NCBI GenBank assembly: GCA_002633005.1
Contig: NMRA01000019.1
Span: forward strand, 1,741,018-1,804,591
Direction of reading: 5' to 3'
DNA length: 63,574 bases
From: Phoronis australis
Lineage: Eukaryota > Animalia > Phoronida
Numbering within the stretch: the first letter of the stretch is position 1; each line of letters opens with the position of its first letter. Positions 8,763-54,390 of this stretch are shown here, in pieces. Under the pieces are notes generated by a model. The model had not been told where the DNA came from, made no database searches, and saw only the letters and a program-made list of their open reading frames with translations. Position numbers and translations under genes: made by a program.

Positions 8763-8843
8763 TTGAAGCACGTGGATCGAAAGATCGACGATTGGGTCCT
8801 TCTGAGTTCCCATCTTGAAGTAAGCGGCTGGAGTAAAGCCGCT
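8763..8843 (-). CDS. Ankyrin gene exon, degenerate C-capping repeat (SGFTPAAYFKMGTQKDPIVDLSIHVLQ)
   Basis: 81 nt, acceptor gttatttctttcag, donor gtaagc, phase 0/0, open frame, with GxTP and IVDL ankyrin residues. Confidence 0.75.
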
Positions 8844-9781: not shown

Positions 9782-9883
9782 AGCATCTGAGAGTGTAAAT
9801 GCAGTTAAAGTTCTAGCTGCGAAGAAGTCGAACACAGCCTGACTACCCCTTACTGCGGCGTAGTGAAGAGGGGCTCTTCCATC
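9782..9883 (-). CDS. Ankyrin repeat exon (DGRAPLHYAAVRGSQAVFDFFAARTLTAFTLSDA)
   Basis: 102 nt, acceptor tttccttgtag, donor gtaagt, phase 0/0, G-x-x-PLHYAA-x-x-G ankyrin motif. Confidence 0.9.
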
Positions 9884-23322: not shown

Positions 23323-23421
23323 CTTGTTTCTTATGTCTACGCTGGCTCCTTTATCCAAAAGCAGGGCGACGATCTTCAAGTTTCCTCCCAAAGCTGCGTA
23401 ATGTAGAGGTGTTGACCCGTT
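23323..23421 (-). CDS. Canonical ankyrin repeat exon (NGSTPLHYAALGGNLKIVALLLDKGASVDIRNK)
   Basis: Exactly 99 nt / 33 aa, tag acceptor, gtaagt donor, phase 0/0, near-perfect ankyrin consensus. Confidence 0.95.
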
Positions 23422-32400: not shown

Positions 32401-33310
32401 AATACTTTTCAGTACTGCAACAACAAATCATTTGAATTGGACATAAACCTAGAGACCAGTCTAATAGTGAGTGATTTTATACACACAGCATGGTCTCAAG
32501 GAATAGCAAACTGTCAATTCCAGAAATCACTTTCTATTTGGATAATGAACAAACTGAGCAAAGTTTATAGAGGTAAATGGTCTAAATCAAAACTTATTAC
32601 CTCATGGACAGAAGGTTCACAACCCAGGCAGAAAGATAAGTTAACAAAACCAGCCTAACTGCAACAGGGGCTCAAATTTCAGCAATATATACCCATTTAC
32701 AAACAAAAATCTATAATGGGAAATAAAATGCGGAAATATAAATTTTCAGATCATTTACGCATCTTCAAGGAAAAGGAACAGTGCAGTGGTCAGAATTCAT
32801 CTAAATGTGATGGCCACACTGAGAATTCCTGACAGACCAAGAGTCCAGAGGCTAAACAAAATAAAACAATGTACCATTACCATGTGGCCCAGGGTCATGG
32901 TCCGTGCCTGGACAAAAATTCAGTCTAGGTAAATTTTAGATTTGTGCTGTTCACACAAGCAGTTCTGGTGCAAAGAAAGTTTGCGACAACACACAAGCCT
33001 ACTTCCCTACACAGCTGTGCTGATACAATAATGCCCCCACTGGATTTAGCAGATCAGTCAGAGTATTTATAGGTCCAGCCACTGTACTGTTTCCTCCTTT
33101 TGAATTTTTACAATGCTACATCCTTGACAATCGCAGATTGCCTCTTTCAATGCATACTCAACTTCCTCTGTCCCAGTTTCCCCACATTTGCTGAGAGTGG
33201 CCTATCTTAACAAATTGCTTTGGACCTGCTATGCTATAAGCCAGTAATACTTTTTCCATGACTCGTTTCTCAAGCTACAAATTCTCTTTGACATATCTTC
33301 TGGGAGTAGA

Positions 33311-35838
33311 TCAGCAGCCGATCCAACTTGACAGCTACAGATTTCTGGCACTTCCATCGTAACATGGACAAGAGACGAGCTCCTCCCAGATCCATCCTAT
33401 TGAATGCAAGCAACACCATTCTCAGGAATGACAGGAAACAGGGTGAGGCTTTTCTCCTGCGTTTCGTCCAGCACAGTGACCACAGTGATGAATCTGAGAG
33501 AAACCTCCTCATCCAACAACTAGATGAACTTTGCAAGACAGCTGAACAGGACAGTCAATTCTCTACAGCAGACGTTGCGGATGCTATCAAAACTTGCAAA
33601 GAGGGTGCCCCTGGCCACGATGGCGTGAGAGTCCTGACACTCAAGTCTTTGCCTGACTTTCTGCTGGCCACGCTCGTGAAGTCCTACAACGTCAGTTTGG
33701 CCACTGGAATCATCCTTCACATCTGGACCGATGCCTTCTTAATTCCTGTACCAAAACCTGGAAAAGACCATCGTGCACTCAAGGGATATCGCATTATAGT
33801 GATGCAAAACGTCATTGAAAAAATCCCTGAAAGGATCATGGCGCAAAGAATCACCAAGTTAATTGAACCCTGGCTCCTCCCAGGAATGGGTGCTTATCGA
33901 CCTGGTAGAGATTCATGGGCCAATGCAGCTTCTTTTGTAGATCAGATATGGCAAGGTTTTGAAAACAAAGAACACACTATCCTCGTTGGCCTTGATCTAG
34001 AAGATGCAAACAATTCTGAACAACTTCCAAAACATGCAGATGACATGCTTCATCTCGGTATTCCAGTACGATGCATTAGATGGGTGATGAGTGCCCTCAA
34101 CAGCCGGCGATGCATGCTAAAACATCGTACATGGTGTTCAGAATGGGTATCTGTCAACACAGGCTTACCCCAAGGTTCACCTCTGTCCCCAGTGCTGTTC
34201 AATATCTACACCCTCCCACTCGCCAGACTGAACCGCGCTGACTGCCGACTTCGCACCTTTGCAGACGACATGCTGCTGTCATCACAAGGACAAACACATC
34301 ATGAGGTTCTCCGCAAAGCACAGTCTACATTGATGGAAATCTGCGAGTTTTGTGCTAGCAGCGGAATGAGCTGCAATGGAGACAAATGTGAAGCTCTCTT
34401 CTGTACTCTGGACAATCGTCTCAGTGTTTTTAATATTTTCCCTTGCTCTGCCTACGATGGGAAGTTGATTGCAGCATTTAACCACACGCGTCACTTGGGT
34501 GTAGAACTCGACCGCAGGCTCAACTTCACAACTCAAGTTAACAGTATGATCAGCCGTGCTAACAGAGGAATCAACGCCCCTAGGGCTGCGGTTGGTCGGA
34601 AGGCGGAGGAAAGGCACCTCGTCATGCTTTATAAAGCCCTGGTCACTTCGGTCTTCGACTACGCTCTCCCCATGATCAACATCAGTAAAAATCAAATCAA
34701 CAGACTTGAGAGGCTCCGAAACATTGGTCTTCGCGTCATCACTGGATGTACGAGATCTACGTCAGTCACAGCATTACGTAACCTTGTCGGTGTTCCCAGC
34801 ATTGCAGACAGACAATCTCTTCTACAAGGTATTACGGTAGCCAAGGCTGTTCAAAGCCCCTTCCATCCATTACAGAGTCAAGTGAAGACTGCACTTGAGA
34901 GGTGCGTGAATCCCGTCCCTGCAACAGAAACTTATGGACTTCGTCCTTGACCTTTTCGCAATGCCTCCCACCAAAGACTTAGCAAGTGCTCTCGGACTGT
35001 CGCGGCTGTTAACGCAACCATGGTTCTCATCGGCGAACACATGATCGCGCAAGATGCTGTTTGGCTGCCAGTGCAAGAATTTGTGAGGAACCGAATGTCA
35101 TCATTGCTTTCAACAGGGAAGCTCGAGAATGGCCACCTGGAGTAGCCCAAGCATTGTGCCGTCAGCAATGGCGTGATCTTGGCGGTATTAATGACATCAT
35201 TGTAGCAACTGATGGATCCTTCGATGGTGAAACTAATCGTGCGGGATGGGGTTATCAAATACGCTGTGCTAACAACGTCATTGCGGAAGGTAGTGGCTGC
35301 CACCATGTATACACAAGCAGTAGGCGGATGGAGTTTGAGGCTATACAACGTGCCCTAACCAAGCTGTCACTCCTAGACCTGGAGAATCACATCATTATCT
35401 TTGCCACCCATTCCATGGCAGTCTTGATGAAAGTTCAATCTGGAAGCCTGCCAGCCAACTGAGGTGTCTTCCGATCACCCCACCCTCATCATGTAGTGAT
35501 CTGGTCTTTCGTACCTGGCCACGCCGGTGTCTTGATTACTGAGCGTGCAGATTACCTTGCTGGCTCATGCACCACCAACCAACCCCTCTACTTATATTCG
35601 GCTGACGTTAAGCTGCTTGCCCGCAAACGTAACCTCGAGCAGACTGCATCCCAACTGGCTGAGTTCAATGATGGCAGCCGACTGCTCGAAGCCGGCCCGA
35701 GGGCTGTCAAATCAAATACTTACAAGCAACGTCAACCCTGGAGTTCTGCGCCTTCTGTTGTCACGGGTATGGTCTGGGGAGGGGAATAATGCACCAGCAT
35801 ATCCCCAATGATCCTGTCCGTGACAGGTATTACAGGTA
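33311..35838 (+). mobile_element. 5'-truncated I-group (Ingi-like) LINE with RT and RNase H
   Basis: 13-bp TSD TTCTGGGAGTAGA (33298-33310 and 35839-35851). RNase H motifs ATDGS, MEFEAI, FVPGHAGV..ERAD. ACAGGTATT repeat tail. Confidence 0.9.
33328..34950 (+). pseudogene. Non-LTR reverse transcriptase, 540-aa open segment
   Basis: APGHDGV, IPVPKPGKD..YRII, LDLEDA, GLPQGSPLSPVLFNIY, FADD, HLGV. Confidence 0.92.
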
Positions 35839-36933
35839 TTCTGGGAGTAGACTTTNCTTTAGGTCAGCCATCATTCAACTAACGGATTGTAAGCTTTAGT
35901 TTGGTAATCAGACGAGTTGGATGAACAAATTTAGTATTATTTCATATTTTAGTGTAAAATGCTAGTGTCCTTAAAATTAATTAAAAACATTTGAGCAAAC
36001 CATTTTTCTTTTAATTGTTGTGTTATACCACGGCATATTAATGCGTAGAAACGGCGCGCAACTAGTGACTGGTTTAACATGACAAATACACATACGCGGT
36101 CTGAAAATAGTGAAATTTCGTCACCTATTACCAGTCTGCCTGAAGGGCTACCAAAGTTTTTACTGTATTAATTTCAAAGGCATGGAGTCTTCTACAGGTC
36201 CATGTTATTATTTTTAGTTTTCTCGCGGGGGCAGCTTCGCTATAAGGCTACAACTTACTGCTAGTTTTTCACAAGAAAGAAATGTAGCTCCACGGAAACA
36301 GTTCCAGTGTTACCATGGTTACCGATATTTCAGTGTCGGTGCCGTTTTTACTGACGTTGGTCATAAACCTATCTTGTGATATCAAAATTGTTCAGAAACG
36401 ATTCTTTTGGAAGCAGAAACTGGAGTAGAAAATTTGGTTAAAAATTACTCATTCCACATCAAGAAATTGGCTCATTTTCCCCCCCAGAACACTTCCCTTG
36501 TATCTCCTAAACCACCAAAATTTGTGGTGTCATACTTCACCCAATTTCTCTCATCCCTAATGTGATTTATCAGACTAAACATGGATCTGAATGGCTGACC
36601 CCCCACCTTGCCGCTTGTTGGCTGTACAGTGGTCGGTGGATTCGTGGACTGATACTTAACTTGCGCTCGTAATTACGAGCGTAATTGTACGGCGACACTG
36701 CTGAAATTTAATTAATTTTACGCTCGTAATTACGAGCGTAATTTTACCGCGACACTTTCCCCTCAAAGGCCCACCATAATGTACTCCCGATTCATTTAGT
36801 CTGATTGTGCGTGCTCACATTTGCATCAACCCCAAGTTACATGCAGGAGGGTGGAAAACGATGTTTACAATGCATCATGTATTCAATTAAACTTCCATTC
36901 ATTCGTTCAATGATAGTATTTGAACATGCTTAC

Positions 36934-37032
36934 CTTGTCACGTGACTTGACATCTGCGACATGCCGCAAACTTAACTCGAAAACTTTGGCGTTGCCTCCC
37001 ACAGCGGCGTAGTGCAACAGGGTTTGATCAGT
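36934..37032 (-). CDS. Ankyrin repeat exon, unit A (TDQTLLHYAAVGGNAKVFELSLRHVADVKSRDK)
   Basis: 99 nt, acceptor ccctttatgttttacag, donor gtaagc, phase 0/0, TxLHYAAxGG...ADV..RDK. Confidence 0.92.
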
Positions 37033-39089
37033 CTGTAAAACATAAAGGGAATTTTTCTTTCTCCCACGCGCTCGTGCAAAAGCATCAAACTTTACGAAGT
37101 GACGTCATGAATTTCACACACTGTAAATGTGAAAACAATGTTTGTTATTTGTCGTACTGATTGTTTTGAGACCCTTTAGAATCCCTACGTGTAGGTAAAT
37201 ATTGAAGTAGAGTGAATATAAGAGTTTTTTTGGGAATGAAAAGGTAACCAATTTTCAAAGGTGCCACAGTACTTCTTAATATCCTGATGGACGAAATGGA
37301 TGTGTGCTTAAGAGGGCCATAAAAATGGCACCTAAATATTGAGCTAGATCAACATCTCTGACAACCGCCTGAAAAGTCTATCATGTAATTCACTGTTTTA
37401 AATTGACAACGGCAGAACAGTTTTACAGGTAAAGAACATTAGCTCGATGACTTCAATAGGAGCCAAAGCTGAGGTTGATCAACCCAAGATGTGACCGCAT
37501 GAACCCAGTTGTAAAATATTCAGCATTACCCCATGTATCATATATGAACACTGCCAGATAAGTCCTGTGATGGGTTACCCCCGAAAGACACGTACGAACT
37601 TCCGACTTGAGCTAAATCAAACCACCAGGTAACCAGTTGAAAGCAATTGCAATATAATTTAGATCATTCAACGTGCCACAAATGATACACCAGAAGTCAG
37701 ACAAAATAAAAGACACGAAATATATTTGAAAATTCTCATTTACTCAGCTCGATACCTTCAACGTTGATTCAAGTAAGGAAATAGAATCAACCAATTACAT
37801 TTCAAATTTGAGCCACGTTGGCTACGTGGGGATGAAATGGACAGTTCGTGGGTGGCATCGTTGGTTGTTGATAAATTAGCTAAGCTGATCCTACTTCCTT
37901 TGCATGAAACCCCCATGCACTGTAAAATATAAATGTACAATCTCAGTCAATTAAAAAATCTCAGTTATACTATTGATATGTCCCATATAATTTAACATGA
38001 CGACGTGTCCTCAATGTAAAAAGCCACAGTCGTGTTTTACCATTTTGGGTCACATCTTACGTACAGCAAATCCTTCACGGGCCATCCAGAGACTAGGACC
38101 AACTAACAGTTTACGTAGCGTATGCACCAGTGTCTTTCCTGGTCACTCCCCAGTCATGGCGGTACCCATTTTAAACAACCTAATGGACTGGATCATTGCA
38201 GTTTCAACGCTTTGCTAGTCAGACACATAATGATCAGTTGGTAGCAAATTCTTACAAACGAAACTTTAAGGCAAATTAAAAATCGGTATTTTGAACAAGT
38301 TCTAACATATGAGATTAAATAATTATTTCCTAATGGCTGATCATTACATGTCAAAAAGTTTTACAAACAGAGACTCGTTGATATCCTCGAATTTAATATG
38401 TGCACGAATTCAGAGACTAAACTCAAAGGTGGATTTAGGGGAGCAGCCCCTCTCACCCCCTGGCTGCCGCAAAAAATAAAACAACAAGACCGTGGGGAAT
38501 TGTTGAATTTCTCAATTAACCATGGCAATTAATATTATACGGCTGAAACAAAATTAGCAATGTGTGCAATTTAAGTCTGTGTGTGCGTGTGGGGGGAAGG
38601 GCTCACGTGTACGTTTCAGACCGCTGGCGCAATCGTAACGGAACTATGGCTAAGTAATGGCGCTGCCGGTCAATATGTGCGTGACATCCCAGCGGAGCGG
38701 CAGTGGCGCTAGGCACCACCACTTTGTGTCTGTTGTCTGCTCCACTGTGCAATTGAAGAAATTACTTCATTTTTTTCAAAGAAAACGGTACCTGATTGAC
38801 GATGAAGAAACATAAGCTACTAATAAGACGTAAATTTCAATCAAAGCCTCAGTGAATCACTTTAGACTTGCGATGTGTTTCAGTTCTAAACACACAAAAC
38901 GTTTGTTATTCCAGGCAGTTCCTCAGGTCCGTTGCGGCCGCCGAGATTGGACATCACGAACATAAACCTCTAGTCACGTAAAGACTATACTAGTGAGCCA
39001 AAGAAATAATGTGTACGTAATTACTTTAGTGAATTAGCAACGCAAATGCAAATGTACTTATTTGTCGAGGGCCGCGAAATCAATTTGCC

Positions 39090-41310
39090 CTTTTACAGAA
39101 CCGCCAGGGAAAGTAACAATGATGTCATACAGAATTTGTTAAATGCAAAAAACTTTTCATTGCTCACAGGCTTTCTTCCGTTACGTTCGTACTTTCGGAA
39201 CAAAACTCTACTCTCAACTGAACATAGATACAGTAACTGACCTAGCGACATAATTAAAAGACACAAGATATTTCGAAACATACTTGGTTTATTCTCAAGT
39301 GAAGATAAAATGACGCAGTGATGCCACCACAGAGTATAAGCTGACGACACACACAGTGAGACACGGCGGGTGTGAAATACTGCAAAGAATGGCAAATGAA
39401 GGGGAGTAACAGGAAAGTCACGCAAACAACTGTAACGTGTGGCGCGACCCTTTTTGCTGCTCATTCAAAACAGGCTTCTCAAAAGCAATTAAAAATTACT
39501 CTAATAGATTCAAAAACGCAGCAAATGACGGGTAATTTTAAGTGCGTGGCATTGCAGAAAAGGATCTTGAATGGCGTCATTTTGAAGATGCATGGATAAC
39601 CGACGGGAAAGACTGCAAACCGTTTGACCAATGTAACATTTGTTTGAAGTTTGAACGAAGACATTTGTTCATAGGGCATATTTACAAACTCATAAACAAC
39701 ACTACAATGTCCAACGGGGCGGACTTTCGCTTTAGAAATGTTATTTTTCATGATCATGTTTGAGGACTTCCTATTCCGATAATAAATAATAACATTGAGG
39801 TAATCATCAGGCTTACAAACTTTAACAGTATCCCTTATAATTGTCTTAATGGCGTGTGGGTCTTGGAGGTAATTATTAGACATGACATTTTTGTAAAATA
39901 TATTTTTGGTGACACCAGTCCGACTTGCAGGGACTTCATAGCTAATTGTGGACACAAATCCCTTAATATGGAAATCCACAAAAGCATTGGTATACCCATT
40001 ATTCACCAGTGTTTGTCTTATGCGATCTACCTCTTTGAACAATAGCCAGTTGGACGACACCGAAGACGCCCTCTCTAGGAAGTTGACCACAACGGCGACC
40101 TCATACCGCTCAGGGCACTCACTTTTGGCGTGGAGACAGAAACCTTTATCAGTAGGTTTGTGATAAACCGATGTAGAAAATTCAGATGGAGAATGGTTCA
40201 CAAGAACGTCCAAAAATGGACTATTCTCATTTACAGGGAGCTCGTGGGTAAACTTCAATACAGAGTGACGCTCAAGTTCATCACGTACTGATAACAAGTC
40301 ATCAAAGGCACAATAAACAAAAATATCATCTACATAACGTACATACATGTAGATAGGAATACCACCAATCACATTGCTAGCCCTTTTTTCCACTTCAGAC
40401 ATATAAAATTCCGAGAAAGTGGGACCCAGAGGAGAGCCAATGCTCACACCATCTTTTTGCAAAAACAATTTTCATTTATATGGCGAAATGATACTTTGGT
40501 TGTGCAGATGGTCAACAACTCTGTCATATGAGTTGGTGAAATGTCGGGTTGTTTTAAATTTGGATTACGGTATACACTATCCAAAATGATAGTAATGGTC
40601 TCATCCACCGGTACGTTGGTGAACAAAGACTAAGCGTCAAGCGAAATATGTTGGTAATGGTGTGCGCAAAATGTCAATGAAATCCTCACGAGATTTAATG
40701 GAGTAACGGCTCTGAATGCGGCTTAATGATGTTATCAAGAAGCTTCGCTGTCTTGTACATGTACGTAGGCGTCAGGATTTGGGATATTATCGGCCGTAGA
40801 GGTACATCTTTTGTGTGTTTTGGGGTTACCATAGAGATAACCTTCGGAGTAATCGCCTTCGATTTCGGAGAAAATGCGACGACCAGCCTCAGCATTTATA
40901 GCCTTAATGTGACGATTCAATTCACCTTTAAGCTCAATGAGGGGTGACCGACTAATGCTGGTAAACTTGGAAGGGTCACATATTAATAGACTAAGTTTAT
41001 CGGAATATTCATCTTGTTTAAAATAACATACTGGGCAGACTTTTCGGCGCGGCGAATAACAATACTATCACTTGAGAATGAAACAAGTATGTTTCGAAAT
41101 ATCGTGTGTCTTTTAATTATCTCGCAAGGTCAGTTGTTGTATCTACGTTTAGTTGAGAGTATAGTTTTGTTCCGAAAGTACGAACGTAACGGAATAAAGA
41201 CTGTGAACAATGAAAAGTGTCGTGCATTTAACAATTTCTGTATAACCGAAAACTTGCTCCCGAAGTTAAGCCAGTTCAAGTAACAATGATGTGAAAAATG
41301 TGTTTGTATA
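39090..41310 (-). mobile_element. Penelope-like element, second family, with inverted pLTR copy
   Basis: RT motifs GVSIGSPLGP, VRYVDDIF, PFLDVLV, VYHKPTD. The GIY-YIG is clearer in copy B (CYIGQT..RRLSMHLQNG). 39110-39310 is repeated inverted at 41060-41250. Confidence 0.92.
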
Positions 41311-41319
41311 TCAAAGTAA

Positions 41320-42240
41320 CGATTTCCCTAACATGTGACCATAACATGTAAAATCGAGATATTGTTTTACAACAGCAAGATGTTAGCAAACGCTGACTAA
41401 GCATACGCTCACACGGCCTCTGTGTCCGGTCAATTACCTTTATTGCATCTGAAGCCTGTAACGCAGTGGTTTATTTTATTATTTTTTTTATTGTCTATTA
41501 CGAAATCGTCAGAATACAATGAGTATACATAACCCAGAAAGTGCCAAGAGGCATTAGATCTGGGTAAAAAATACAAAGAAATCTACATGTGTATACAATT
41601 ATTGTACACGTATACATAAATAAAAAACTGATGTTAAGATTACAATGATATATGACTACGAATGTAAATAATTCATTTTCATACAGATGTATAAAATTGT
41701 CCTCACACAAAGAAATTTAATGTTATCAAATAATTCTGATACTATTTAAAATAAAACCTTATTTTCACTCGAGTTAAGTTCTTGACATCCATATAGAAAG
41801 AATTTAATTTTGTTACACAATTGCGGAGTTTCAGAATATTTTTGTAAAGATTGGGGTATTGTTCGAGAGTCTGGAAAAGCTGTACCCTCTCCTCCTTGCA
41901 TACCTCACAAGCAAAGAAAACATGAGGATATGTCTGGGTTTATTCATTGCTGACTTCTTAAAACATTTCCATTCACGAATACTCCAAAGGTATTATAAAT
42001 TGTATCTAATGAGACAGACTTTGTTCCAGATTTATATCAGCATTGGTTAGGGCGAGAATTATTCATTTTGAAACAGAACGCAGAATAATAAACGTCATCA
42101 TGGCAACTTGCAATCAAGACTTCGAATCGGAATACGGTGATCAAGAAATACTAGAGAGGCTCCGTGAAATTGCACAGGCAACGGAACTTATGGATAGTTC
42201 TTTGGTCAGCCGGCATTTTTCGGACTCGCTGTAAAAGACT
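41320..42240 (+). mobile_element. Kolobok-like internal fragment (KolX/P2X7-like start), homologous to ~980-1500
   Basis: FESEYGDQEILER matches FEPEYTDQEILER. The upstream non-coding sequence is shared in reverse orientation. Copy B at ~54400-55400. Confidence 0.6.
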
Positions 42241-43029
42241 ACCTGACACAGAGTCGGAGTTGTGTCACCATAGACTATAGATAGGGACTACCAACTCCCG
42301 TTAGAGAGAGTAGTTGAGCATGTCAAGGACCAAGAGACATAAGCACTAACCATAAGAGGGCGCTGCAAACGCACAATAGAAAACTTCCGGTTTCACGGAG
42401 CAGCCGTTCCCTCGTTTCAAGATTTGGTTAAGTAATGCGTCGACTTTTTTGAAGTTCTCTCTCATGTAATTTAAAACCTTCACAAGATGATTCAGACATG
42501 TTATGAATTATTAAAGCCAGAAACGTCTTCAACTGATTTTCCCATTTCCCATGTTTACACTTAAGTCGCATCAGCTGTTTTTTGCTGCAAGTAGTATTAG
42601 TGTTTGTTTAGATTCAGTATCGTACGAATCAGCTCATAATCATAAGTAAAAGTATTAACCAACAAAAATGAATTCGTTACAATGTTACACAATAAATATT
42701 TGTGTAATTCACACAGCTTTGTTCCAGGGGGAGGAAAGGCTCACCGACATTGACATATCATTTGCACAACCCTAGTGTCAAAAACTTCCGCCACTAGTAT
42801 CACAGTGGCGCATCTAGAATACAATAAGGGAAGCCCAACATGTCGCTCGTGGAATTGGGCAAATCGCAATTGTATGTGCACAGGCGACCCGAAAGTTGGA
42901 GGGGTAAAAAAATAATTGCAGGTGGTCTGATACACGTTGTACCAGACGTGCGCAGGCCTCGCATGTGGACCCATTGCACTGATCATCTGGAAATATTTTT
43001 ATGCTTTATGAATATAGGGTTAAAACCGA

Positions 43030-43135
43030 GCTGAGGAGCTAGAAACCTGGCTCAAGGGTTTAGCAGTGTGACCTGGTGGGACTTGAACCCATGATCATGA
43101 GTAATGAAAGCGGACAGGTTATTTGGACCTTGCGT
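43030..43135 (-). repeat. tRNA-derived SINE 5' fragment
   Basis: B-box GGTTCAAGTCC followed by CCCTTGAGC core-like sequence. Copy B at ~56230-56320. Confidence 0.45.
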
Positions 43136-43419
43136 TCTGCAAATGTATTGGTGGACTAAAGAAAGCGAACGCAATTCCGGCGCTAGCGGTCCCAGTTACT
43201 CACGGTTCATGCTGTTGCTGTTGCTGTTTCCTTTTGCTTGCGGCAGCCCGGGGGGGGCAGGCTCATGCCTAAATCTGACTATGTATCATAGGCCAACAGT
43301 ACATTGTAGGGAAACTTCTAAATATATTTATGATTATTATTGGCACTCGTTGCTGTTAACAATCTTTATTCCATTCCGTTCGCATCCTCGGAACAAAGTG
43401 CAAAAGTCAACAGAACATT

Positions 43420-44000
43420 GGTAAAGTAACTGACCAAGAGACATGATTAAAAGACAACTGATATTTCGATACATACTTGTTTCATTCTCAAGTGGAAACA
43501 AAATGACTCAATAATATCACCACAGAGCAAAAGCTAGTGAAATACCCAAAGGGACGCAGCAGATGTGGAATACTGCTAAAACTGACAAATGGAAGGGGTA
43601 ACAAGAATATCGCGCAGACAAGTGCAGCACGATGACCCCGATTGATGCACATTCAAAACAGGCTTCTTGAATGCAAACAAAAGAGAGTCCTATAATTTCA
43701 ATCGCAGCACACCGTGCTCTCCATGTCGACCCAATTGACGTGTTCTCCACATTTTTTTGACGAGTGATACTTATGATTATGAAAGTAGGCATGCTCATTA
43801 AGACCTAATGTCCATTTCTCACTTTCAGTGTCTGATCATCTTCTAAATAAAAAGGATCCTGGATATGTCGAAAATACGACAAATACGTAGAATATTTGTA
43901 AAGTAATATGGAACTTAAGAGTTTTACCTAGAACGTGATTTTGTAAAAGTGAACTCTTCCCCCAGGACTCTTCTCTAGCTCTTTAAACAGAAAACAGCTA
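43420..44000 (-). mobile_element. 3' fragment of a Penelope-like element (GIY-YIG end + pLTR)
   Basis: ITRQKNVENTSI matches ITRQEIVENTSI at 52457-52981, and the same hammerhead-like pLTR motif is at ~43452-43495. Copy B at ~56620-57200. Confidence 0.75.
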
Positions 44001-45309
44001 ATTTTCATTATCGCACTGAGCGTGAATATTCACTTGCCAAAATCAGTTTCAATATTGGGTAGTGCAGAGACAACCTGCGATTGAATTGAAGTCAAAACTT
44101 GGAAGGACCAGTTAGCACTGTTATTTTCTTTTGGGTTTTGTGATGTCAACAGATATTCAATGTTCGCAAGGAAACTTGTATACTACAATTTTAAAAAATT
44201 AAGTTTTTGTACTTTATACTCAGTGAAGGGAATGCAGTTTTAAGTGTTATATTATCGCATGCAGAAGAGAGACAGATAATGACATGAAGTAAACCAACAA
44301 GTGAAACAAAATACCACAGCATTTGACATCAGAGAACATGAGAGGGAAAGACTCGAGTTATGAAAGGTGTTCGGTCAGCCGTATTTTTAGTGGTTATCAG
44401 ATAGCACAGCACACACAAAATACACATTTTTCGTTTTAATATTTTCCCATTTCCAATGAGTAAGTAATGTAACGGGGGTCTGGGATTACCCTGCTTTACT
44501 TTACACGTGTTAAGTGAAAATTGGCAACACAAATATACAATGGAATTGATTTTTACAACGACAAACAGGAAAAACATTCCAAAAAGTGCTGTATACATTT
44601 CTGAGAAAGTAAAACAAAAACACCATTTGCATGCTATGTTTTACAAAATAGAACTATAGGAGCAAAGCAAAATACAAATTTCATCAGATAGTCTTAAATG
44701 GTAGCTTTAGACGTGCCATCTATACAAGTTTTTGAATTTTCATGTCGGTTAGGCGACTCTCCAGTTCTTTAATTTTTAGAGCCTCAAAAATAGAGTTCAG
44801 CAAACAGCACCTTAAATTTCAGGCCATGAAAATTGCAAGTTTAAACAATTTTATTTGGGAATCAATAACTTATTGTCTTCCTAAAACAAGATTTTAAGGT
44901 TTTAAGAGCATATTTTCCCAATGAATATCCCGGTATCTGGACACTTGATACCAGAAGTTTTAATACCAAAGAAACGCCCATGAGCATATACATGTATATA
45001 TGACATGATGTTCTGAATAAACATCCATTGGCGTTTCATCTGGTGGGCTTATCCACGGCAAATTCCATGTCTGGAACCCTGTACCCTTTAAACCAACGTT
45101 AAGTCCGTGTTAGCCTGCAGACGGTCGAAAAAAGCTATAAAGATGTAAAGCAGTTGATAACAATCGCTCCACAATTGCACAAGTTAGTTAATTTATACAG
45201 GCCCTACAAGAACGAGTCTGCAGATTTACCTTGTCGTTGGCACCGAAGCTTCAAGTTATCTCGTTCAGTGAGTGCACTGGTTTCAAGTCCAAAATATCCA
45301 TTTGACCTT

Positions 45310-47045
45310 TCAGATCATCGTTTGTTATAGTGGTAGAAAAAATTAATAAATAAATTACTGGACTTACGATTATATAGAGATGGCTACGTTACGAGGACTT
45401 CATCAGGTCACTGAGGTGTCACGTGATTCGTCATGTGATCCGCAGCACAGTTTGCGCGGGACCCTCTTCAGTGCCCTATCCCACGTCCTTGGCAATAGAC
45501 TCCTCACCCCCCGTCTGTTTAGGCTAGGATTCTCAATTCCCTCATATATAGCTTCCTTGACACCTCTCCTAAACCAATTTTCCTCTCTATCCAGAATCTT
45601 GATATCTTCTAAGAGTGGTCTGTGGCCGCCATATCACTAAAAACTTAAGAATCATATCAGTCCCCATAACTACGCCTACGATTTTGGTTGAAACGACTTT
45701 TCAGGGCTTGTTTGGTTTCCCCAATGTATGCTTCCAAACACCCTGGTTCTGAAATGTCATACACCACATTTGATTTTTTTCTTTCGTGGTCTTATCTTTC
45801 ACATTCAACAGATGTCTCCTTATAGTGTTAACTGGTTTGAACGAAACAGAAATATCGTGGCCCCTCATGTGAGATTTAACCTGGTCTGAGATCCGTGGCA
45901 CAAAAGGTAATGTTATCCTGATGTTTCCCGCTGTTGTGAGGCTGCGTGTGCTGAGGCCTGACTCCGAAGAGGTTTGCTTTGTGGAATGACCATTCAGGAT
46001 AGCCACATCTCTTTAATACTGTTCTGTTGTAGTCCAACTCAACATCGATGCCTTCCTCCGTGTTGGGGATGGTTTTCGCACGATAGTCCAACGTTCTTAT
46101 CACGTCCAGTTTGTGTATCAAAGGGGAACTGGAGTCAAACGGAAGGTATGTGAGTGGGCTTCCTATAAGCCTTGGTTTTAATACGTCTGTCTATAACAGT
46201 CACTAAACAATCCAGGAATGGCAAAGAGTTGTCCCTAGATTCCACTTGAGTAAACTTGATTTTGATATCACATTGATTAATGTTTTCGAAGAACCCTATC
46301 TTTTCACAATTTTTTAGCACAACAAAAGTGTCATCTACATACCTCAGCCAGAGTCTAGATGGAACTCCATCATAGGACGCTAACGCATTCCTTTCAAAGT
46401 TCTCCATGTATAAGTTCAACACAATGGGGAAACAGGAGAGCCCATGACACATCCATTGGATTGGATGTAGATGTTCCCGTCAAAAGAGCAGTAAGTGTAC
46501 TTACGTGTTAACTCCAGTAGCTGGCAAATGTTGTCTACCAATAGGGTTGTTCCGTCACTTAGGGAATTATCCTGCTGTAGGTGTTCCCTCACAACCGTCA
46601 AAGCGTCATGGGGGTACACACGTAAACAGTTCACTCACATCATAGGAAGTAATGCTATCATCTTCTTCCACCACTAGATTTTCTATGTACTTAACTGAGA
46701 GTTCTTTAAATGGTGTCGAGAGAGGCCAAGCAGGAGCGAGATGATTCTCGAAATAAATTTAGCGATGTTGTAGGTGAGAGAAACAGCGCAGCTGACGATC
46801 GGCCTAAATAGACAGGGGAGCCTGAGGTTTCTATTGCCGATGAAGTGGGATAGGGCACTGAAGAGGATCCCGCGGAAATTGGGCTGTGGATCACATGACG
46901 AAACACATGACACCTCAGTGGCCTGATGAAGTCCTGGATAGGAGGAAGTAGCGTAGCCATCTCCATATAATCACAAGTCCAGTAATTTATTGCTCATTTT
47001 TTTCTAACTTGATTACTCAACTGGATGACTGAAAACATTCACCGC
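45310..47045 (-). mobile_element. Penelope-like element, unit B copy of 25790-27530
   Basis: LRYVDDTFV, LPFLDC, AYRKPTH; inverted pLTR at ~46810-47045. Confidence 0.9.
46918..46960 (+). ncRNA. Degenerate minimal hammerhead ribozyme in a Penelope pLTR
   Basis: GTGGC-CTGATGAAG-TCCT-GGAT-AGGA-(damaged GAAAC)-GTA-GCCAT. Sister copies at 45380-45411 (-), ~27425 (+) and ~25865-25890 (-). Confidence 0.6.
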
Positions 47046-49508
47046 GTTTGTTATAGTGCTTTCGTTGATACGAGGGTGGGTTATGATACATGTACTACCC
47101 TCAAAATTTTCCATTGAACACAATTGCAGCGTACTTGCTGTACCAGGTAAGATATGAGAATTGTTTTGCAAACTTAGTAAGCACCATATCGGTAGAATTG
47201 CTGCATTCAATTAACCCAATTTCCTGTGATCTTTTCATTCATCCTAAAAGATTCAGATATGTGGACACTGATATTATTGGCGTCACCGTGCTACATTGAC
47301 AAGATTTGCCGCTCCGGAATAGCCATGTTCCAAAATATAATAGAGACGGCGCGATAAGATACACCGAGTATCATTAACTGCAGATACAATACAGTGTGAT
47401 ATTTGCAGTTTTTTTCAAATATTCTTTGCGAGCATAATGATGCCGCATTACCCCAACTGTAGAGTTGGACATTCAAACAATTCTCCATAATGTCCAACGT
47501 CTCAAAATGTTTCTGTATGAAGCAAATTGGATTTCGTTCCTGTCAAATGGGCTCATCTTGCACACCGAGATTACAAAATGGGCCAAGCAACAACGCCAGA
47601 AAAATGCCCTAGAATAACTAGTAAGACATTCCAATCTGAACCAACGCATTTTGTTCTTTGTGAATGACTTTGTTGAGTTAATCGAGATAGTGCTGAACAC
47701 CCCCCACTTTGTGTTTTACGGCAAATATAGACAGAAGTATGGCACGGCTATGGGAGCTATGTATCCCCTACTGTACTGAATTTGTACACGAAATATTGAA
47801 AACATTTAGTCCTTAGTTCGACCACTGTTTCCCATAGATTTTGGAAGCGGTATGTGGACGACACGTTCACCATCCTCGAGGGGAACTGTATTTGTACCTG
47901 CATCATTTAACCACATGAAAGCTCTAGACACTTGTATTAAATTCGTTTATGAGATTGAATCATCTCACAGTTGTATTTCGTTTTTAGACTCTCTCATTGT
48001 AAGGTTTTGAAAGTATATCGTAAGTCTACACCAATCAGTACCTTCCCTTCAACACGCACCATCCACTTTTCCAGAAGTTCGGACGTAGTTCGGACACTGA
48101 GACAAAGTTGTGAAAGTATTGTCACCAAGGAAGAGGGTAGATCTGTGGAACACGCCTTGTTTAACTTTGCACTTTCCTCATATGTACACCCGGGTTGCGC
48201 TCTCAAGACATCTTTTTGTGGACAGACAGAGATGGAGAAGGAAAAATGTGTGGTGGCGCTACCATAGTATCAATGTACCTCGGAGACGTTATGCATGATT
48301 TTTAAGACCCACAGGGTTGAAGTAGCTTCCTGACCTAGCCATGAACTGCAGAATTCACTGGTGTATTTCCCAAAGATATAACTTCTTTTAATCAAAAGTG
48401 TGGTGCCAAGCATCAAGTGGGTTGTGCTTCTAGTGAGTCTGAGTACGGAGATTGGGGACCGGGTCTAGTTCTCTGTCATCAGCTTTATCTGAACACGCCC
48501 AGGAAAAGGACATCCCATCAATAGGCAACGTTATTGACAGTGAGAGCCTTTATATTATTAGAAAAATGAGTGAAGCCACACAGATTAGACAGGCATTATT
48601 TCAAATTATGACAAGATTTTAAGCCAGCGCAAAATCAGTAACTGCAGATTTCTTTGCATTGCTCTAGGTTCAATAAACATCAATGGGAACACACGTGCAG
48701 TGTCCCTTACGTATACACTTATCACCAAAATTGGATCCTGGGACCCGATTTATCTGAGGTCATACAAGTCATATAAGTCAGTGGTGGACTCCTTTTTCCG
48801 ATGGCGACAACGTGAAGACAAGTGTCCGTCTCCATAAACCACGTTGGTGAAGAGTTCGCCTTGCCCGCCAAATTTCATTTGGTTTATCTGATGCAACGCT
48901 GTCCTGTCGTTTTCGTGTGCCTCCATGATTGATGAGCACACACCCATTGTGTCTATTGTGAGAGAACTTTGACGTATGCACTGACGCCCTGCCCTTAAAG
49001 TCTTCAGACTGATGTTTGTTAGTAGGTTAGTAATCTCAAAATGGATTGTTCTGAACCCCCTTCGATCCCCACATCCCACGACCCATGAACCCCTTGATCC
49101 ACTACCCCAAGAACAACAATCCCCACTCCCTTCGACCCACGACCTGTGCCAATAGATGTTAATTCAAAGACGGTGATTTTTATTTTTGTTGATTGCATAT
49201 AAATGCCATGAGCATTAATGTAGCTAAATTGGAAAGTGTTGCTCAGTTCAAAACTTCACAAAGGTACAACAACTTCGTTTTCATGTCTATACACTTCATG
49301 AAAATTTTATCATGTTAAGATCTCGGTGAAAATGAGGACAAGCGTTTTGTATAAAGAACTCCCAATTCATTTAGGCTGATTGTTTGTGCTCACATTTTCA
49401 TCAACTCCAAAGTACTTGCATGAGGGTAGAAAACGATGTTTACCATGCATCATGTAATCAAATAAACTTCCAGTCATTCGTTCAATGATAGTATTTGAAC
49501 ATGCTTAC

Positions 49509-49592
49509 CTCGGAACATAAATTGCCATCTGCGTCTGGGTACTTCTTCGCGTATTTTTGAAGACCGATGCAGTACCACTCACCAGGACCAGA
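49509..49592 (-). CDS. Highly diverged ankyrin-derived exon, unit B (SGPGEWYCIGLQKYAKKYPDADGNLCSE)
   Basis: Same acceptor and donor context as 36934-37032. 84 nt, phase 0/0, no stop, codon-alignable to the unit A exon with a 15-nt gap. Confidence 0.72.
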
Positions 49593-51439
49593 CTGTAAAA
49601 CATAAAGGGAATATTTTTTCTCCTACGCAATCGTGCAGAAGCATCAAATTTTACGAAGTGACGTCACAAATTTCACACTCTGTAAATGTGAAAACAATGT
49701 TTGTTATTTGTCGTACAGATTGTTTTGAGACCCTTTAGAATCCCTACGTGTAGGTAAATGTTGAAGTAGAGTGAATATAAACTTAAATTCAACAGGTTTT
49801 TTGGGAATAAAAAGGTAACCAATTTTCAAAGGTACCACAGTACTCCTTAGTATCCTGATGGACGATATGGATGTGGGATTAAGAGGGCCATAAAATGACA
49901 CCTAAATATTGAGCTAGATCAACATCTCTGACAACCACCTGAAAAGTCTATCATTTCACTCATTGTTTTAAACTGACAACAGCAGAACAGTTTTAGGGGT
50001 AGAGAACATAAGCTCGACGACTTCAACAGCAGACAAAGCTGAGGTTGAACAACCCAAGATGTGACCGCGTGAACCCAGTTGCAAAATATTCAGCATAACC
50101 CCATGTATCATATATGAACACTACTAGATAAGTCCTGTTATGAGTTACCCCCTGAAAGACACGTACTATCTTCCGACTTGAGCTAAATCAAACCACCAGG
50201 TAACCAGTTGAAAGCAATTGCAATATATTTACGTGCCACAACTGATATGTCACAAGTCAGACTAATTAAAAGACACGAAATATATTTGAAAAATCTCATT
50301 TACCCAGATCGATACCTTCAACGTTGATTCAAGTAAGGAATTGGAATCAACCAATTACATTTCAAATTTGAGCCACGTTGGCTACGTGGGCATGAAATGG
50401 ACAGTTCATGGGAGGTATACCTTTCTCAGGTATCTTTGGTTGTTGATAAATTAGCTAAGCTGATCCTACTTCCTTTGCATGTTACCCCCATGCACTGTAA
50501 AATATAAGTGCACAATCTCAGTCAATTAAAAAAATCTCAGTTATACTATTGATATGTCCCATGTAATTTAACATGACTACGTGTCCTCAATGTAAAATGC
50601 CACAGTCGTGTTTTACCATTTCGGGTCACATCTTACGTAAAGCAAATCCTTCACGGGCCATCCAGAGACTGGGACCAATTAACAGTTTACGTAGCGTATG
50701 CACCAGTGTCTTTCAACTCACCTTGGTCACTCCCCAGTCATGGCGGTACCCATTTTAAACAACCTAATCGACTGGATCATTGCAGTTTCAACGCTTTGCT
50801 AGTCAGACACATAATGATCAGTTGGTAGCAAATTCTTACAAACGAAACTTTAAGGCAAATTAAAAATCGGTATTTTGAACGAGTTCTAACATAAAAGATT
50901 AAATGATTATTTCCTAATGGCTTATCATGGCATGTCTATAAGTTTGACAAACAGAGACTCGTTGATATCCTCGAATTTAATCTGTGCACGAATTCAGAGA
51001 CTAAACTCAAAGGTGGATTTAGGGCGGCAGCCCCCTCACCCCCCTGGCTGCCGCAAAAAATAAAATAGCAAGAGCGTGAGGGAGTGTTGAGTTTCTCAAT
51101 TAACCATGACAATTAATATTATACGGCTGAAACAAAATTAGCAATGTGTGTGCGTGTGGGGGAGGGGCTCACGTGTCCGTTTCAGACCGCTGGCGCAATC
51201 GTAACGGAACTATGGTTAAGTAATGGCGCTCCTGGTCGATATGTGCGTGACATCCCAGCGGAGCGGCAGTGGCGCTAGGCACCATCAATTTGCGTCTGTT
51301 GTCTGCTCCACTGTGCAATTAAGGAAATTACTTCGGTATCTGTTTGACGATGAAGCAACAAAAGCAACTGGTAAGATGTAAATTTTAATCAAAGCCTCAG
51401 TGAATTACTCAAAACTCATAATTTTCTCTTTGTCAAATA

Positions 51440-51825
51440 TTAAAGGAAAATGCCACCCACGAAACAGCCTATTTTGTATCAATTTAGATCGATTAGTTCC
51501 CCTCGATAACAGCAAGTTCAGTTGTTTTACCTGACACCTGACGGCAGACGGAGGTATTGAAATTAACCAATGACATAATAGGTTCGAACGCAGTCTGTTC
51601 AGACATTCACAACATGCTTACTGGTGTCAACTTATCGTTTGAATGCATCGTTTTGCACCAGTAAATCATCAAATTTCGATGTAAAGCCTTTACAAATACA
51701 CCGGGTTCTTGAACAAACGTGTTGTTTTATTTTATTTTATTCCATTGTTACGGATTTATAGGTATACGAACGTGCGGTTGCCAACAAGGAGTCAAGCAAT
51801 GTAGACTCCTATAAGCCAATTTAAA
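51440..51825 (+). mobile_element. Solo Kolobok-like terminal segment
   Basis: Starts TTAA-AGGAAAATGCCACCC; reverse-complement homologue of 2510-2851; absent from unit A. Confidence 0.7.
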
Positions 51826-52139
51826 ATGGTCAATCGCGGGAGTTTGGGTCAATTTGGTGATCAATTCGAAACTTTCTTTCGTGAAATAAAGACATCAAAG
51901 ATAGTGCGTGGTACTTTAAGACTTGCGATTTGTTTCAGTTATAAACACACAAAACGCTTGTTATCCCAGGCAGTGCCTCAGGCCCGTTGGGGCCGCCGGG
52001 ACTGGATATCACGAACATAAACCTCCAGTCACGTAAAGACTATACTAGTGAGCCAAAGAAATAATGAGCACGTAATAATTTTAGTGAATAAGCAACGCAA
52101 ATGCAAATGTACTTTCTTGTCGGGTGCGGGGAAATCAAG

Positions 52140-54390
52140 TTGCCCTTTTACAGAACCGTCAGTGAAAAGTTGAACAGTAACAATGATGTTATACAGAATT
52201 TGTTAAATGCACGAAGCTTTTCATTGTTCACAGTCTTTATTCCGTAACGTTCGTACTTTCGGAACAAAACTCTTCTCTGAACTGAACATAGATACAGTAA
52301 CTGACCTAGCGACATAATTAAAAGACACACAATATTTCGAAACATACATGTACTTGTTTCGTTCTTAAGTGAAGATGAAATGACGCAATAATGCTACCAC
52401 AGAGTATAAACTGATGAAACACATAGTGAGACACGGCGGGTGTGTGCAAAGAATGACTAATGAATTGGGGTAACAGGAAACTCACGCAAACAAGTGTAAC
52501 GTGCGGCGCGACCCTGTTTGCTGCTCATGAAAACAGGCTTCTCAAAAGCAATTAAAAGGGACTCTAATACTTTCAAACGCAGCACATCTTGCTCCAGGTA
52601 GCGAATTGACGTGTTTTCCACAATTTCTTGACGGGTAATTTTACGTCCGTGGCATTTCAGAAAATGATCTTGAATGGCGCCATTTTGAAGATGCATGGAT
52701 AACCGACGGGAAATAATGCAAACTGTTTGACCAATGTAACATTGTTTGACGTTTGAACGAAGACAGTCATTCATAGGGCATACTAACTCATTAACAACAC
52801 TACACTGTGCAACGTGGCGGATTTTCGCTTTAGAAATATTATTTTTCATGACCAAGTTGAAGGAGCTTTTATTTCGATAATAAATAATAACATCGAGGTA
52901 ATCATCAGGCTTACAAACTTTAACATTATCCCTTATAATTTTCTTAATGGCGTGTTCGTCTTGGAGGTAATTATTAGACATGACATTTTTGTAAAATATC
53001 TTTTTGGTGACACCAGTCCAGTTGCTTCATAAATTCTTGAGGACACAAATCGCTTAATATGGAAATCCACAAAAGCATTGGTATACCCATTATTCACCAG
53101 TGTTTGTCTTATGCAGTCTACGTCTTGATTGAACAATAGCCAGTTGGATGAGACCGAATGCGCCCTCTTTAAGTTGGCCACAACGGCGACCTTATACCGC
53201 TCAAGGCATTCACTTTTGGCGTGGAGACAGAAACATTTATCAGTAGGCTTGTGGTAAACTGAGATGTAGAAAATTCAGATGGAGAATGGTTCACAAGAAC
53301 GTCCAAAAATGGAATCTTGTCACTTACAGGAAGCTCGTGGGTAAACTTCAATACAGAGTGACGCTCAAGTTCATCACGTGCTGATAACAAGTCATCAAAG
53401 GCACAATAAACAAAAATATCATCTACATAACGTACATAGATAGGAATACCACCAATCACATTGCTAGCCCTTTTTTCCACTTCAGACATATAAAATTCCG
53501 AGAAAGTGGGACCCAGAGGAGAGCCTATGCTCACACCGTCTTTTTGCAAAAACAATTTCCAATTTATATGGCAAAATGATACTTTGGTTGTCACGTGCAG
53601 ATGGTCAACAACTCTCTCATATGAGTTGGTGAAATATCGGGTGGCTTTTATTGGCCTATCGAACTTTGTAGGCTACGGTGTGTCCAAATACCAATAAATC
53701 CGTAAGAGCGAAATAAAACAACACGTTTTTATAAGAACTCGGTGTACTTTTAACGGTTTCACATCGAAGTTTGATGATTTATTGGTGTTAAACGATGTCT
53801 TCAAGCGATAAGCTGACACCAGTAACCCGTGTTGTGAACTGCTGAACAGACCGCGTTTGAAACCGATGACGTAATTGGATAATTTCAACACCCCCTTCTG
53901 CCGTCAGGTGTCAGGTAACGCAACCGCACGTGTCGTTATGGAGTAGAACTATTCGATCTAAATTGATACAAATTAGGTTGTTTTTTGGGTGGCATGCTCG
54001 TTTAAGCTCAATGAGGGGTGACCGACTAATGCTGGTAAACTTGGAAGGGTCACATATTAATAGACTAGGTTTATCGGAATATTCATCAGTTTGTTTAAAA
54101 TAACATACTGGGCAGACTTGTCGGCGCGGCAAATAACAATACCATCACTTGAGAATGAACAAAGTATGTTTCGAAATATCGTGTGTCTTTTAATTTGATC
54201 TCGCTAGGTCAGTTACTGTATCTATGTTCAGTTGAGAGTATAGTTTTGTTCCGAAAGTACGAACGTAACGGAATAAAGACTGTGAACAATGAAAAGTGTC
54301 GTGCATTTAACAAATTCTGTATAACCGAAAACTTGCTCCCGAAGTTCAGCCAGTTCAAGTAACAATGATGTGAAAAATGTATTTGTATAT
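52140..54390 (-). mobile_element. Penelope-like element, unit B copy of 39090-41310
   Basis: RT ORF 53169-53594 and GIY-YIG ORF 52457-52981; interrupted at ~53650-54005. Confidence 0.9.
53650..54005 (-). mobile_element. Solo Kolobok-like terminal segment inserted at TTAA in the Penelope RT
   Basis: Direct homologue of 2510-2851, ending at TTAA. Replaces ~375 bp present in unit A (~40550-40925). Confidence 0.75.

Follow-up and report, generated by a model that had tools for sequence, protein, structure and literature searches.

A 63,574-nt stretch of the Phoronis australis genome (hereafter "the window") contains a tandem duplication of ~13 kb, one unit of which carries exon A and the other exon B; exon B is spliced directly onto exon A, shows an excess of replacement changes, occurs in at least three versions and has lost the ankyrin signature. 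We interpret this arrangement, with a probability of about 0.6, as a duplicated ankyrin exon under diversifying selection, whose versions are likely balanced alleles and which belongs to a probable non-self recognition protein.

The duplicated units and their two exons

Self-blastn and alignment delimited the two units, within which the following features were mapped:

25395..44892, no strand: duplication unit A, including exon A and a 7-kb insertion (self-blastn, alignment)
44895..58041, no strand: duplication unit B, including exon B (self-blastn, alignment)
29750..36778, no strand: insertion in unit A, bounded by a 6-bp target duplication and carrying terminal inverted repeats
36934..37032, minus strand: exon A (99 nt, phase 0-0), follows exon B in the mRNA and encodes a partly degenerate ankyrin repeat
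49509..49592, minus strand: exon B (84 nt, phase 0-0), a hypervariable descendant of an ankyrin-repeat exon (RNA depth, homology to A, profile)
49474..49508, minus strand: donor flank, 35 nt, identical in both units (first donor-side difference at 49473)
49593..49612, minus strand: acceptor flank, 20 nt, identical in both units (first acceptor-side difference at 49613)

Apart from the exon and one replaced block, the units are 93% identical. The insertion, which holds a reverse transcriptase/RNase H element, is intronic and missing from unit B. The introns differ at 829 of 11,773 columns (7.0%; K2P 0.074), a count that excludes the low-identity block 40555-40927 vs 53648-54001. Diverged homology was rejected for this block, which we regard as a replacement because it interrupts the blastn alignment and because its sequence in unit B matches a repeat present elsewhere in the window.

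Both exons are bounded by AG and GT and are open, in both copies, in frame 0 only; any other frame, antisense included, that would make the pattern look purifying was ruled out, since exon A has stops there (those on the plus strand were checked by eye). With the best single 15-nt gap, corresponding to a 5-codon in-frame deletion in exon B relative to exon A, the two exons agree at 45/84 nucleotides and 4/28 amino acids. This homology is above chance, as none of 20,000 nucleotide shuffles and none of 20,000 codon shuffles reached 45 identities (means 26.5 and 27.6, respectively). The divergence of the exon pair (46%) is 6.6-fold that of the introns, uncorrected, and the dip in identity at the exon is unique along the duplicated introns (Fisher p 1e-22): the worst of 11,690 sliding 84-column intronic windows retains 69/84 identical positions. 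The introns contain no comparable homologous patch, the presence of which the original prediction had named as a refutation. On the donor side (49436-49508) the units show 4 differences in 73 nt, and with 7% divergence the perfect 35- and 20-nt flanks (p 0.08 and 0.23) are unremarkable alone. All numbers of the original prediction (exon coordinates, flank lengths, 4/73, 45/84, 4/28, the 15-nt indel and the AG/GT ends) were reproduced, as was its observation that third codon positions are better kept (19/28) than first and second together (26/56; 15 and 11 of 28 individually).

Loss of the ankyrin signature and likely selection on the exon

Ankyrin repeats are 33 residues long and share the framework TPLH..A..G and LL..GA. 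Exon C (see below) retains 15 of the 15 framework residues, exon A 9 and exon B only 2, with T4, P5, L6, H7, A9, A10 and G13 destroyed in the latter. The Pfam Ank model (cut-off 21.1 bits) scores exon C at 42.7 bits and exon A just below the cut-off (19 bits, E 0.0017), and the 28 residues of exon B find no Pfam match at E<=1, PF00023 (ankyrin) included, and score -2.2 bits on a custom ankyrin profile built from 246 repeats. Judged by its sequence, exon B has ceased to be an ankyrin repeat, as which it had been classed in the original prediction; its descent from an ankyrin-repeat exon is evident from a homology to exon A above all shuffles and from its same place in the duplicated unit. Outside this pair, the gene probably includes the following putative exons:

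23323..23421, minus strand: exon C, putative next exon of 99 nt with AG/GT ends, coding for a canonical ankyrin repeat
9782..9883, minus strand: exon D, putative exon of 102 nt, a degenerate ankyrin repeat (Pfam E 0.059; profile 21.6 bits)
8763..8843, minus strand: candidate exon E (81 nt, phase 0-0), perhaps the last, degenerate repeat of the array (splice signals; profile -0.7 bits)
5882..5945, minus strand: candidate exon F, predicted from splice signals only, phase 0-1, with 64 nt coding for a charged stretch

Exons B, A, C and D are all of phase 0-0 with one repeat per exon; the splices supported by reads are those from the upstream exon to B and from B to A, and the rest of the gene probably runs C-D-E-F. 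In a six-frame search of the window only C, D and A scored on the ankyrin profile, with no further ankyrin-like exons. No NACHT or NB-ARC domain was seen in the window, outside which the 5' exons lie. The introns of the gene are 12-13.5 kb long.

Single-base differences separate A and B at 16 codons; 14 of them are replacements and 2 are silent. Codon maximum likelihood (three gap placements and equal frequencies) gave dN of 0.97-1.02 and dS of 0.24-0.29 for the whole exon; equality of dS with the intron rate was not rejected (p 0.08-0.18; the dS interval of about 0.03-0.69 admits a raised silent rate), and omega=1 was rejected at p 0.026-0.036. The 19 well-aligned codons yielded dS 0.074 and dN 0.82, with omega=1 rejected at p 0.003; the evidence from the whole-exon test is modest, at p about 0.03, and the codon subset behind the stronger test was picked after viewing the alignment. 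The model in which both rates equal the intron rate was rejected at p<1e-12. As a control, exon A against its paralogue C showed saturated dS and omega near 0. Positive selection, the first of three mechanisms put forward in the original prediction, is supported, because dS is compatible with the intron rate, dN is 13-16 times that rate, and the variants described below are almost all replacements; the other two, exon-limited conversion from an ankyrin paralogue and targeted mutation, and the cassette system of its title are not. Conversion from an ankyrin paralogue finds no support: exon B does not resemble an ankyrin repeat, nor is its dS saturated like that of A vs C.

Splicing and versions of exon B

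In RNA sample X7, 8/8 mapped reads lie only partly on the stretch used for mapping, with depth limited to exon B and to one strand; six continue from B into the first 30 nt of exon A and three into the upstream exon (RNA read counts are small, 5 and 8, and come from less than 1/5 of each run). Exon B is therefore spliced directly onto exon A in one mRNA, which settles in the affirmative whether 49509-49592 is included in a transcript, and A and B are neither cassettes nor alleles, because the reads join them in succession. In a wide, repeat-swamped mapping the B-A joint was absent among the 15 of 198 joints listed, and sample X8 gave no mapped reads, an outcome that carries no weight. The end of the upstream exon was not found in the window, where a single match with 3 mismatches compares with 1.28 expected.

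The DNA sample X1 yielded one contig identical to the window across exon B (depth 25.8), the identity extending over 49318-49709, and another, at depth 22.5, in which the same span carries 17 differences. Together they account for the full depth at the centre of B (48.3 = 25.8 + 22.5). In this second version, 13/17 differences could be placed and all fall in 8 codons whose residue changes whichever path is taken (S1T, G2S, W6M, I9T, L11P, Y14I, A15K, K16F), so that 13/13 placed changes are replacements (p about 0.03); the remaining 4/17 are unplaced and may be silent. Three reads of RNA sample X5, an independent sample from another study, carry a 30-letter loose end that equals the second version in a comparison by eye, and this divergent version, with its excess of replacement changes, is shared by X1 and X5. 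A third version, found in RNA X7, has G2S, L11P and Y14F plus one silent change. Framework positions 2, 6 and 9 vary among the versions, which at codons 6 and 14 departed from the codon of exon A via different single changes. Sites shared among the three versions are interleaved, three joining the X7 version with the second and three with that of the window.

We infer that the B versions are alleles of one locus, based on four contigs of similar depth from one sample. In X1 only two A-type contigs bridge the exon and there are two B-type exon contigs, all at depths of 22-30, as two heterozygous diploid loci would give. Moreover, the two B versions have common start and end points and so rejoin in both flanks. 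These observations speak against the idea, which we consider unlikely, that the A and B versions are copies of a small gene family (further loci or tandem units) with selection acting between paralogues only. In its favour, one A-type flank in X1 differs from exon A of the window at about 15/150 sites, about 10% from the window's A and also from B, and a third copy is possible since this equals the divergence of A from B; in addition, the contig sets were filtered and the sample may be pooled.

The system of cassettes originally proposed, in which a library of paralogous repeats would supply, by swapping or conversion, the exons that lie between conserved flanks, is very improbable given that A and B are consecutive exons, B being joined to A rather than replacing it, and that only two B-type and two A-type exons occur between the flanks in the one DNA sample. 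The two contigs that cover all the depth over B leave no exon-only donor at a level of at least 80%, and the number of bridging A-type contigs and the depth of the low-copy bins beside both exons (59-63) agree with this. An old paralogue as donor would have brought saturated silent divergence and the ankyrin consensus, neither of which B has, and neither strand of the window holds another ankyrin-like exon. Points in favour of a cassette library are the presence of one repeat per phase-0 exon, which makes the exons interchangeable in frame, the interleaving of shared sites, suggestive of recombination or short conversion, and an agreement of only 0.76 between the X7 reads leaving B and the exon-A consensus, by which some reads may lead elsewhere.

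Likewise quite improbable is exon-targeted hypermutation, with a roughly tenfold mutation rate within exon B and little selection on the outcome. It accords with the end of divergence at the splice sites, with 9/28 differing third positions, with a whole-exon dS point estimate (0.24-0.29) that exceeds the intron rate and with the framework residues of B not being spared. However, omega=1 is rejected (p 0.003-0.036), the 13/13 placed differences between two B versions are replacements, and 39 changes between A and B plus the in-frame deletion have introduced no stop or frameshift. Targeted mutagenesis, by an adenine-directed retroelement or a cytidine deaminase, produces base-biased changes and somatic variety. 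The A-B changes lack the base bias expected of either system (11 from A, 10 from C, 8 from T and 10 from G), and the same B version recurs in two samples taken years apart, and for this reason appears to be germline and stable.

Finally, we give almost no credence to an artefact, whether an assembly error, a tandem placement of two alleles by the assembly or a pseudo-exon in decay. Two points favour it: the duplication junction (44892-44895) may lack spanning sequences, and X1 may be the window's own sample. Nevertheless, the spliced B-to-A reads, which come from RNA of another study, already refute it, a pseudo-exon would keep pace with the introns (rejected at p<1e-22), and the DNA contig identical over 49318-49709 speaks against the assembly error that the original prediction had named as a possible refutation.

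The germline allelic reading that we favour starts from the tandem duplication of an ankyrin-repeat exon together with its introns, which gave rise to exon B, now spliced directly to its twin A. Diversifying selection likely drove change at nearly every amino acid of B (24/28 relative to A), probably because novelty is continually rewarded in a surface with a likely role in recognising non-self. Several very different versions were likely retained as alleles via balancing selection, since the protein probably acts in non-self recognition, and germline point mutation with recombination or short conversion among alleles would supply the variation.

Relatives, known systems and biological meaning

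Database searches revealed no orthologue and no full-length protein. An exact search of metagenome contigs with a 30-nt donor flank gave 0 matches; protein searches returned 2 candidates for exon B with its flanks and 8 for exon A, none of which scored, and 202 generic ankyrin proteins for exon C (best identity 71% among 120 listed). Five bacterial HYR-4C repeat proteins matching B were rejected, as their scores summed 4-9-bit matches over near-identical repeats; exon B has no significant single-domain match to the HYR-like 4-cysteine domain (PF23237). An ESM Atlas search with B (first match 0.90, recognition 2008) remained at chance level. In the literature covered, mostly outside subscription journals, we found no animal ankyrin exon with such an exon-over-intron pattern.

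Ankyrin arrays are mostly cytoplasmic. This counts, together with the position of B within an ankyrin array, spliced on both sides, and with the lack of a visible signal peptide or cleavage site in the window (the 5' exons lie outside it), against the rather unlikely possibility that the same selection has another driver and that B belongs to a gamete-recognition protein or a secreted, toxin-like peptide region. Such a driver gains from the two cysteines of exon B that are absent from A and from the change of the whole segment, which fits a peptide better than a folded repeat. It also gains from precedent: conotoxin mature exons, snake PLA2 and abalone fertilization genes are described as outpacing their adjacent non-coding DNA, mature-toxin conotoxin exons by a mean of 2.9-fold (bioRxiv 10.1101/107672), to be compared with the uncorrected 6.6-fold of exon B. 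Unlike conotoxins, exon B is internal to an ankyrin-repeat gene, was duplicated within one gene, lacks a conserved cysteine framework and shows no precursor structure.

In the best reading, exon B has accumulated point substitutions in the germline, on which diversifying and likely also balancing selection acts, as in conotoxin mature exons or Hydractinia Alr2. The latter has one domain per exon, many point-mutation alleles, diversifying selection and inter-allele recombination (PMC8282982). Alr2, as described there, is an Ig-like transmembrane protein with many alleles and with variable sites on one face, whereas exon B is ankyrin-derived, is known in three versions from sequence alone and has been changed in the repeat core. 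The ankyrin, TPR and WD repeats of Podospora fungal NLRs are under positive diversifying selection and polymorphic between isolates (PMC4986451); they are highly similar and number-variable, with selected sites on the concave binding face, in contrast to exons A and B, which are 14% identical in protein, with the framework lost in B. Brown-algal LRR-ROCO and NB-ARC-TPR genes, including those of Ectocarpus, share with B, A, C and D the arrangement of one repeat per in-phase exon and show recent exon duplication and positive selection on terminal branches (PMC3341825, PMC11378527). Their exons are numerous and similar, their introns contain spare or inverted copies, and few concave-face sites are selected, as opposed to one duplication, 12-13.5-kb introns, whole-exon change and no spare ankyrin exons on either strand of the window. 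The selected sites of B are not confined to a binding face with the framework kept, as 13/15 framework positions are lost. The label "diversifying ankyrin binder" given originally is consequently a poor fit as worded, because the changes destroy the framework rather than striking the binding face alone, unlike those of fungal NLR ankyrins and brown-algal LRR exons.

By analogy, we would guess that C and other conserved repeats form the scaffold of a cytoplasmic receptor or of a self/non-self determinant, in which B and, more mildly, A may form a variable specificity segment under rare-allele advantage. More tentatively, and with more doubt than belief, the gene could encode an undescribed animal self/non-self determinant, in which a freely evolving, allele-specific 28-residue tag sits in an ankyrin scaffold, its fold erased via rare-allele advantage; exon duplication would renew the tag, and the allele lineages would date back roughly to the duplication itself.

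Such strong exon-limited diversifying selection marks genes in biological conflict, as in venom, fertilization, allorecognition and immunity, and to our knowledge loci of this kind are known in very few invertebrates. Exon B is unusual among them in being ankyrin-derived and in having lost the repeat core instead of varying a face. It offers a clean case of an old repeat turned into a new sequence, with a built-in neutral clock in the form of 11.8 kb of duplicated intron.

The tandem duplication and its surroundings

The window (GC 39.5%, CpG observed/expected 0.78, single Ns at 35856 and at 58168) is eukaryotic DNA packed with decayed retroelements. The octamer TACATGTA occurs in it 18 times, about ten times the estimated chance number; abundance of this octamer is typical of several marine invertebrate groups and suggests an animal source. 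Self-blastn delimits a 13-kb tandem duplication consisting of units A (25395-44892) and B (44895-58041), the former broken by a 7-kb insertion.

Exons, candidate exons and insertion in the window
5882-5945, minus strand, candidate exon F
8763-8843, minus strand, candidate exon E
8976-9030, minus strand, candidate exon of 55 nt with good AG/GTAAG ends, read by eye
9782-9883, minus strand, exon D
23323-23421, minus strand, exon C
29750-36778, insertion of ~7 kb with terminal inverted repeats, flanked by a 6-bp target duplication (29744-29749, 36779-36784)
33310-34950, reverse transcriptase ORF within the insertion
35013-35462, RNase H ORF within the insertion
36934-37032, minus strand, exon A (unit A)
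49509-49592, minus strand, exon B (unit B)

Judging from their splice signals, C, D and the candidates E and F would be spliced. The 55-nt candidate lies 130 nt upstream of E, to which it bears a short stretch of likeness; its phase (2-0) is mismatched to the position after D. The three successive gene introns within 9884-49508 are all 12.5-13.5 kb long (12476, 13512 and 13439 nt), with sequence similarity among them confined to the B-A pair. A reverse-transcriptase remnant is present in both units (39479-40471 and 52457-53672) with different frameshifts in each, and thus predates the duplication. Segments 40555-40927 and 53648-54001 show no homology between units; the unit B side is a high-copy, much-transcribed repeat, further copies of which lie at 2506-2853 and 51440-51787. 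The C-D intron carries a decayed LINE on the minus strand (14053-17228, with endonuclease and reverse-transcriptase fragments), and just downstream of exon C there is a short diverged tandem repeat (22966-23156; period ~93 nt, copies 74% alike) with many near-palindromic motifs.

Divergence of exons A and B

Exons A (99 nt) and B (84 nt), both on the minus strand in phase 0-0 and bounded by AG/GT, agree at 45/84 nt (15, 11 and 19 identities at first, second and third codon positions) and at 4/28 aa once a single 5-codon gap is placed, exactly as counted in the original prediction. The value of 45 was reached in 0/20,000 nucleotide and 0/20,000 codon shuffles, hence the exons are true homologues. 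The introns of the two units differ at 829 of 11,773 columns (7.0%), a count that excludes the exon and block 53640-54005 of unit B, where the alignment breaks at a repeat known elsewhere in the window. The exon dip is unmatched in the introns, the worst of 11,690 intronic 84-column windows being 69/84, and the identical flanks of 35 and 20 nt are unremarkable given the intron divergence.

The A-B changes show an excess of replacements and no base bias: 2 of the 28 codons are identical, 2 differ silently, 14 carry a one-base replacement and 10 have two or three bases changed. With the gap placed in three ways, and under an alternative frequency setting, the pairwise codon model gave dN 0.97-1.02 and dS 0.24-0.29. 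With intron divergence as the neutral rate, as originally proposed, dS is compatible with 0.074 (p 0.08-0.18), omega=1 is rejected (p 0.026-0.036), and so is neutral decay of the exon at the intron rate (p<1e-22). A subset picked after the fact, the 19 codons away from the gap, gave dS 0.074 and dN 0.82 (p 0.003). As a control, the older paralogue pair A-C behaved normally, with saturated dS.

Against an ankyrin profile built from 246 repeats of 120 listed ankyrin proteins, exons C, A and B score 72.9, 22.1 and -2.2 bits and keep 15/15, 9 and 2 framework positions, respectively. G2 and N29 are retained by B and lost by A, which indicates that both copies have moved away from a canonical ancestor, with B the much more altered of the two. 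No Pfam match was obtained for exon B, which is an ankyrin exon by descent but not in its sequence.

Transcription and versions of exon B

RNA reads were aligned to the narrow stretch 49310-49790, with <1/5 of each raw run sampled. Run X7 yielded 8 reads, each only partly on the stretch, with depth over exon B only; their orientation is the one that minus-strand RNA would give in a standard stranded library. Six continue past 49509, with a consensus identical to exon A over its first 30 nt (agreement 0.76, so that some may have another version or exon), and three continue upstream into an exon absent from the window. B and A are therefore consecutive exons of one mRNA, joined across 49509->37032; the exon-over-intron divergence of the original prediction holds up, concerns a transcribed exon and is more pronounced than initially described. 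At this sampling, run X5 yielded 5 reads, 2 of them intronic (each with roughly 4-5 differences from the window), and run X8 yielded 0.

DNA run X1 represents one sample, possibly the window's source; of its 20 contigs on 49310-49790, 8 pieces are listed. Four of these share a common donor flank at depth 22-30, two of B-type (the first matching B exactly, the second differing from it at 17 of the same 141 letters) and two of A-type (one with 3 differences, the other with an exon of 99 nt by arithmetic). Thirteen of the 17 differences could be placed (12 by depth rows, 1 by summed depth); all fall in the exon, in 8 codons whose residue is changed by every path (S1T, G2S, W6M, I9T, L11P, Y14I, A15K, K16F), while the other 4 are hidden and possibly silent. 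On either side of the exon the two B contigs run together again; their flanks need not be identical, as small differences may have been lost in assembly. The loose end of 3 X5 reads equals the second version over 30 letters, hence this version is expressed in material from a different study and year. X7 contains a third version (G2S, L11P, Y14F, a silent change at codon 22 and one hidden change). When A serves as outgroup, 3 sites join it to the second version and 3 to the window's; the two sets alternate along the exon, a pattern that suggests recombination, short conversion or recurrent substitution. One A-type flank in X1 lacks the insertion and shows ~15/150 differences from the window's A; thus either the age of the allele lineages is close to that of the duplication, or there is a third copy. 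As X1 contains A-type sites both with and, apparently, without the 7-kb insertion, the insertion looks polymorphic.

The original proposal of a hypervariable ankyrin cassette system is not borne out: B and A lie in the same mRNA, and no spare ankyrin exon was found in the window on either strand. Depth at the centre of B (48.3) matches the combined depth of both B contigs, with no other sequence at >=80% left, and two contigs bridge as A-type (adjacent low-copy bins of both units: 59-63). A cassette system drawing on a distant donor exon could escape a filtered contig set such as this one, but nothing points to such a donor.

Possible mechanism and function

We infer that germline point mutations in the exon would have accumulated under diversifying selection, with divergent alleles held by balancing selection. 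By analogy, we guess that the product may serve non-self recognition. A role in gamete recognition, or a product resembling a peptide, are plausible alternatives, since the 5' exons lie beyond the window.

One-domain exons with alleles driven by point mutation are described for Alr2 (PMC8282982), and exon-over-intron divergence averages 2.9-fold in conotoxin mature exons (10.1101/107672), compared with 6.6-fold for exons A and B. Sites under selection map to the binding face both in the ankyrin repeats of fungal NLRs (PMC4986451) and in the one-repeat exons of brown-algal ROCO genes (PMC3341825, PMC11378527), whereas in exon B the framework itself is erased. A literature search of incomplete coverage found no animal ankyrin exon with such a pattern. 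The locus would be an instance of the known exon-limited diversifying selection, acting here on an ankyrin-derived exon whose framework has been erased.
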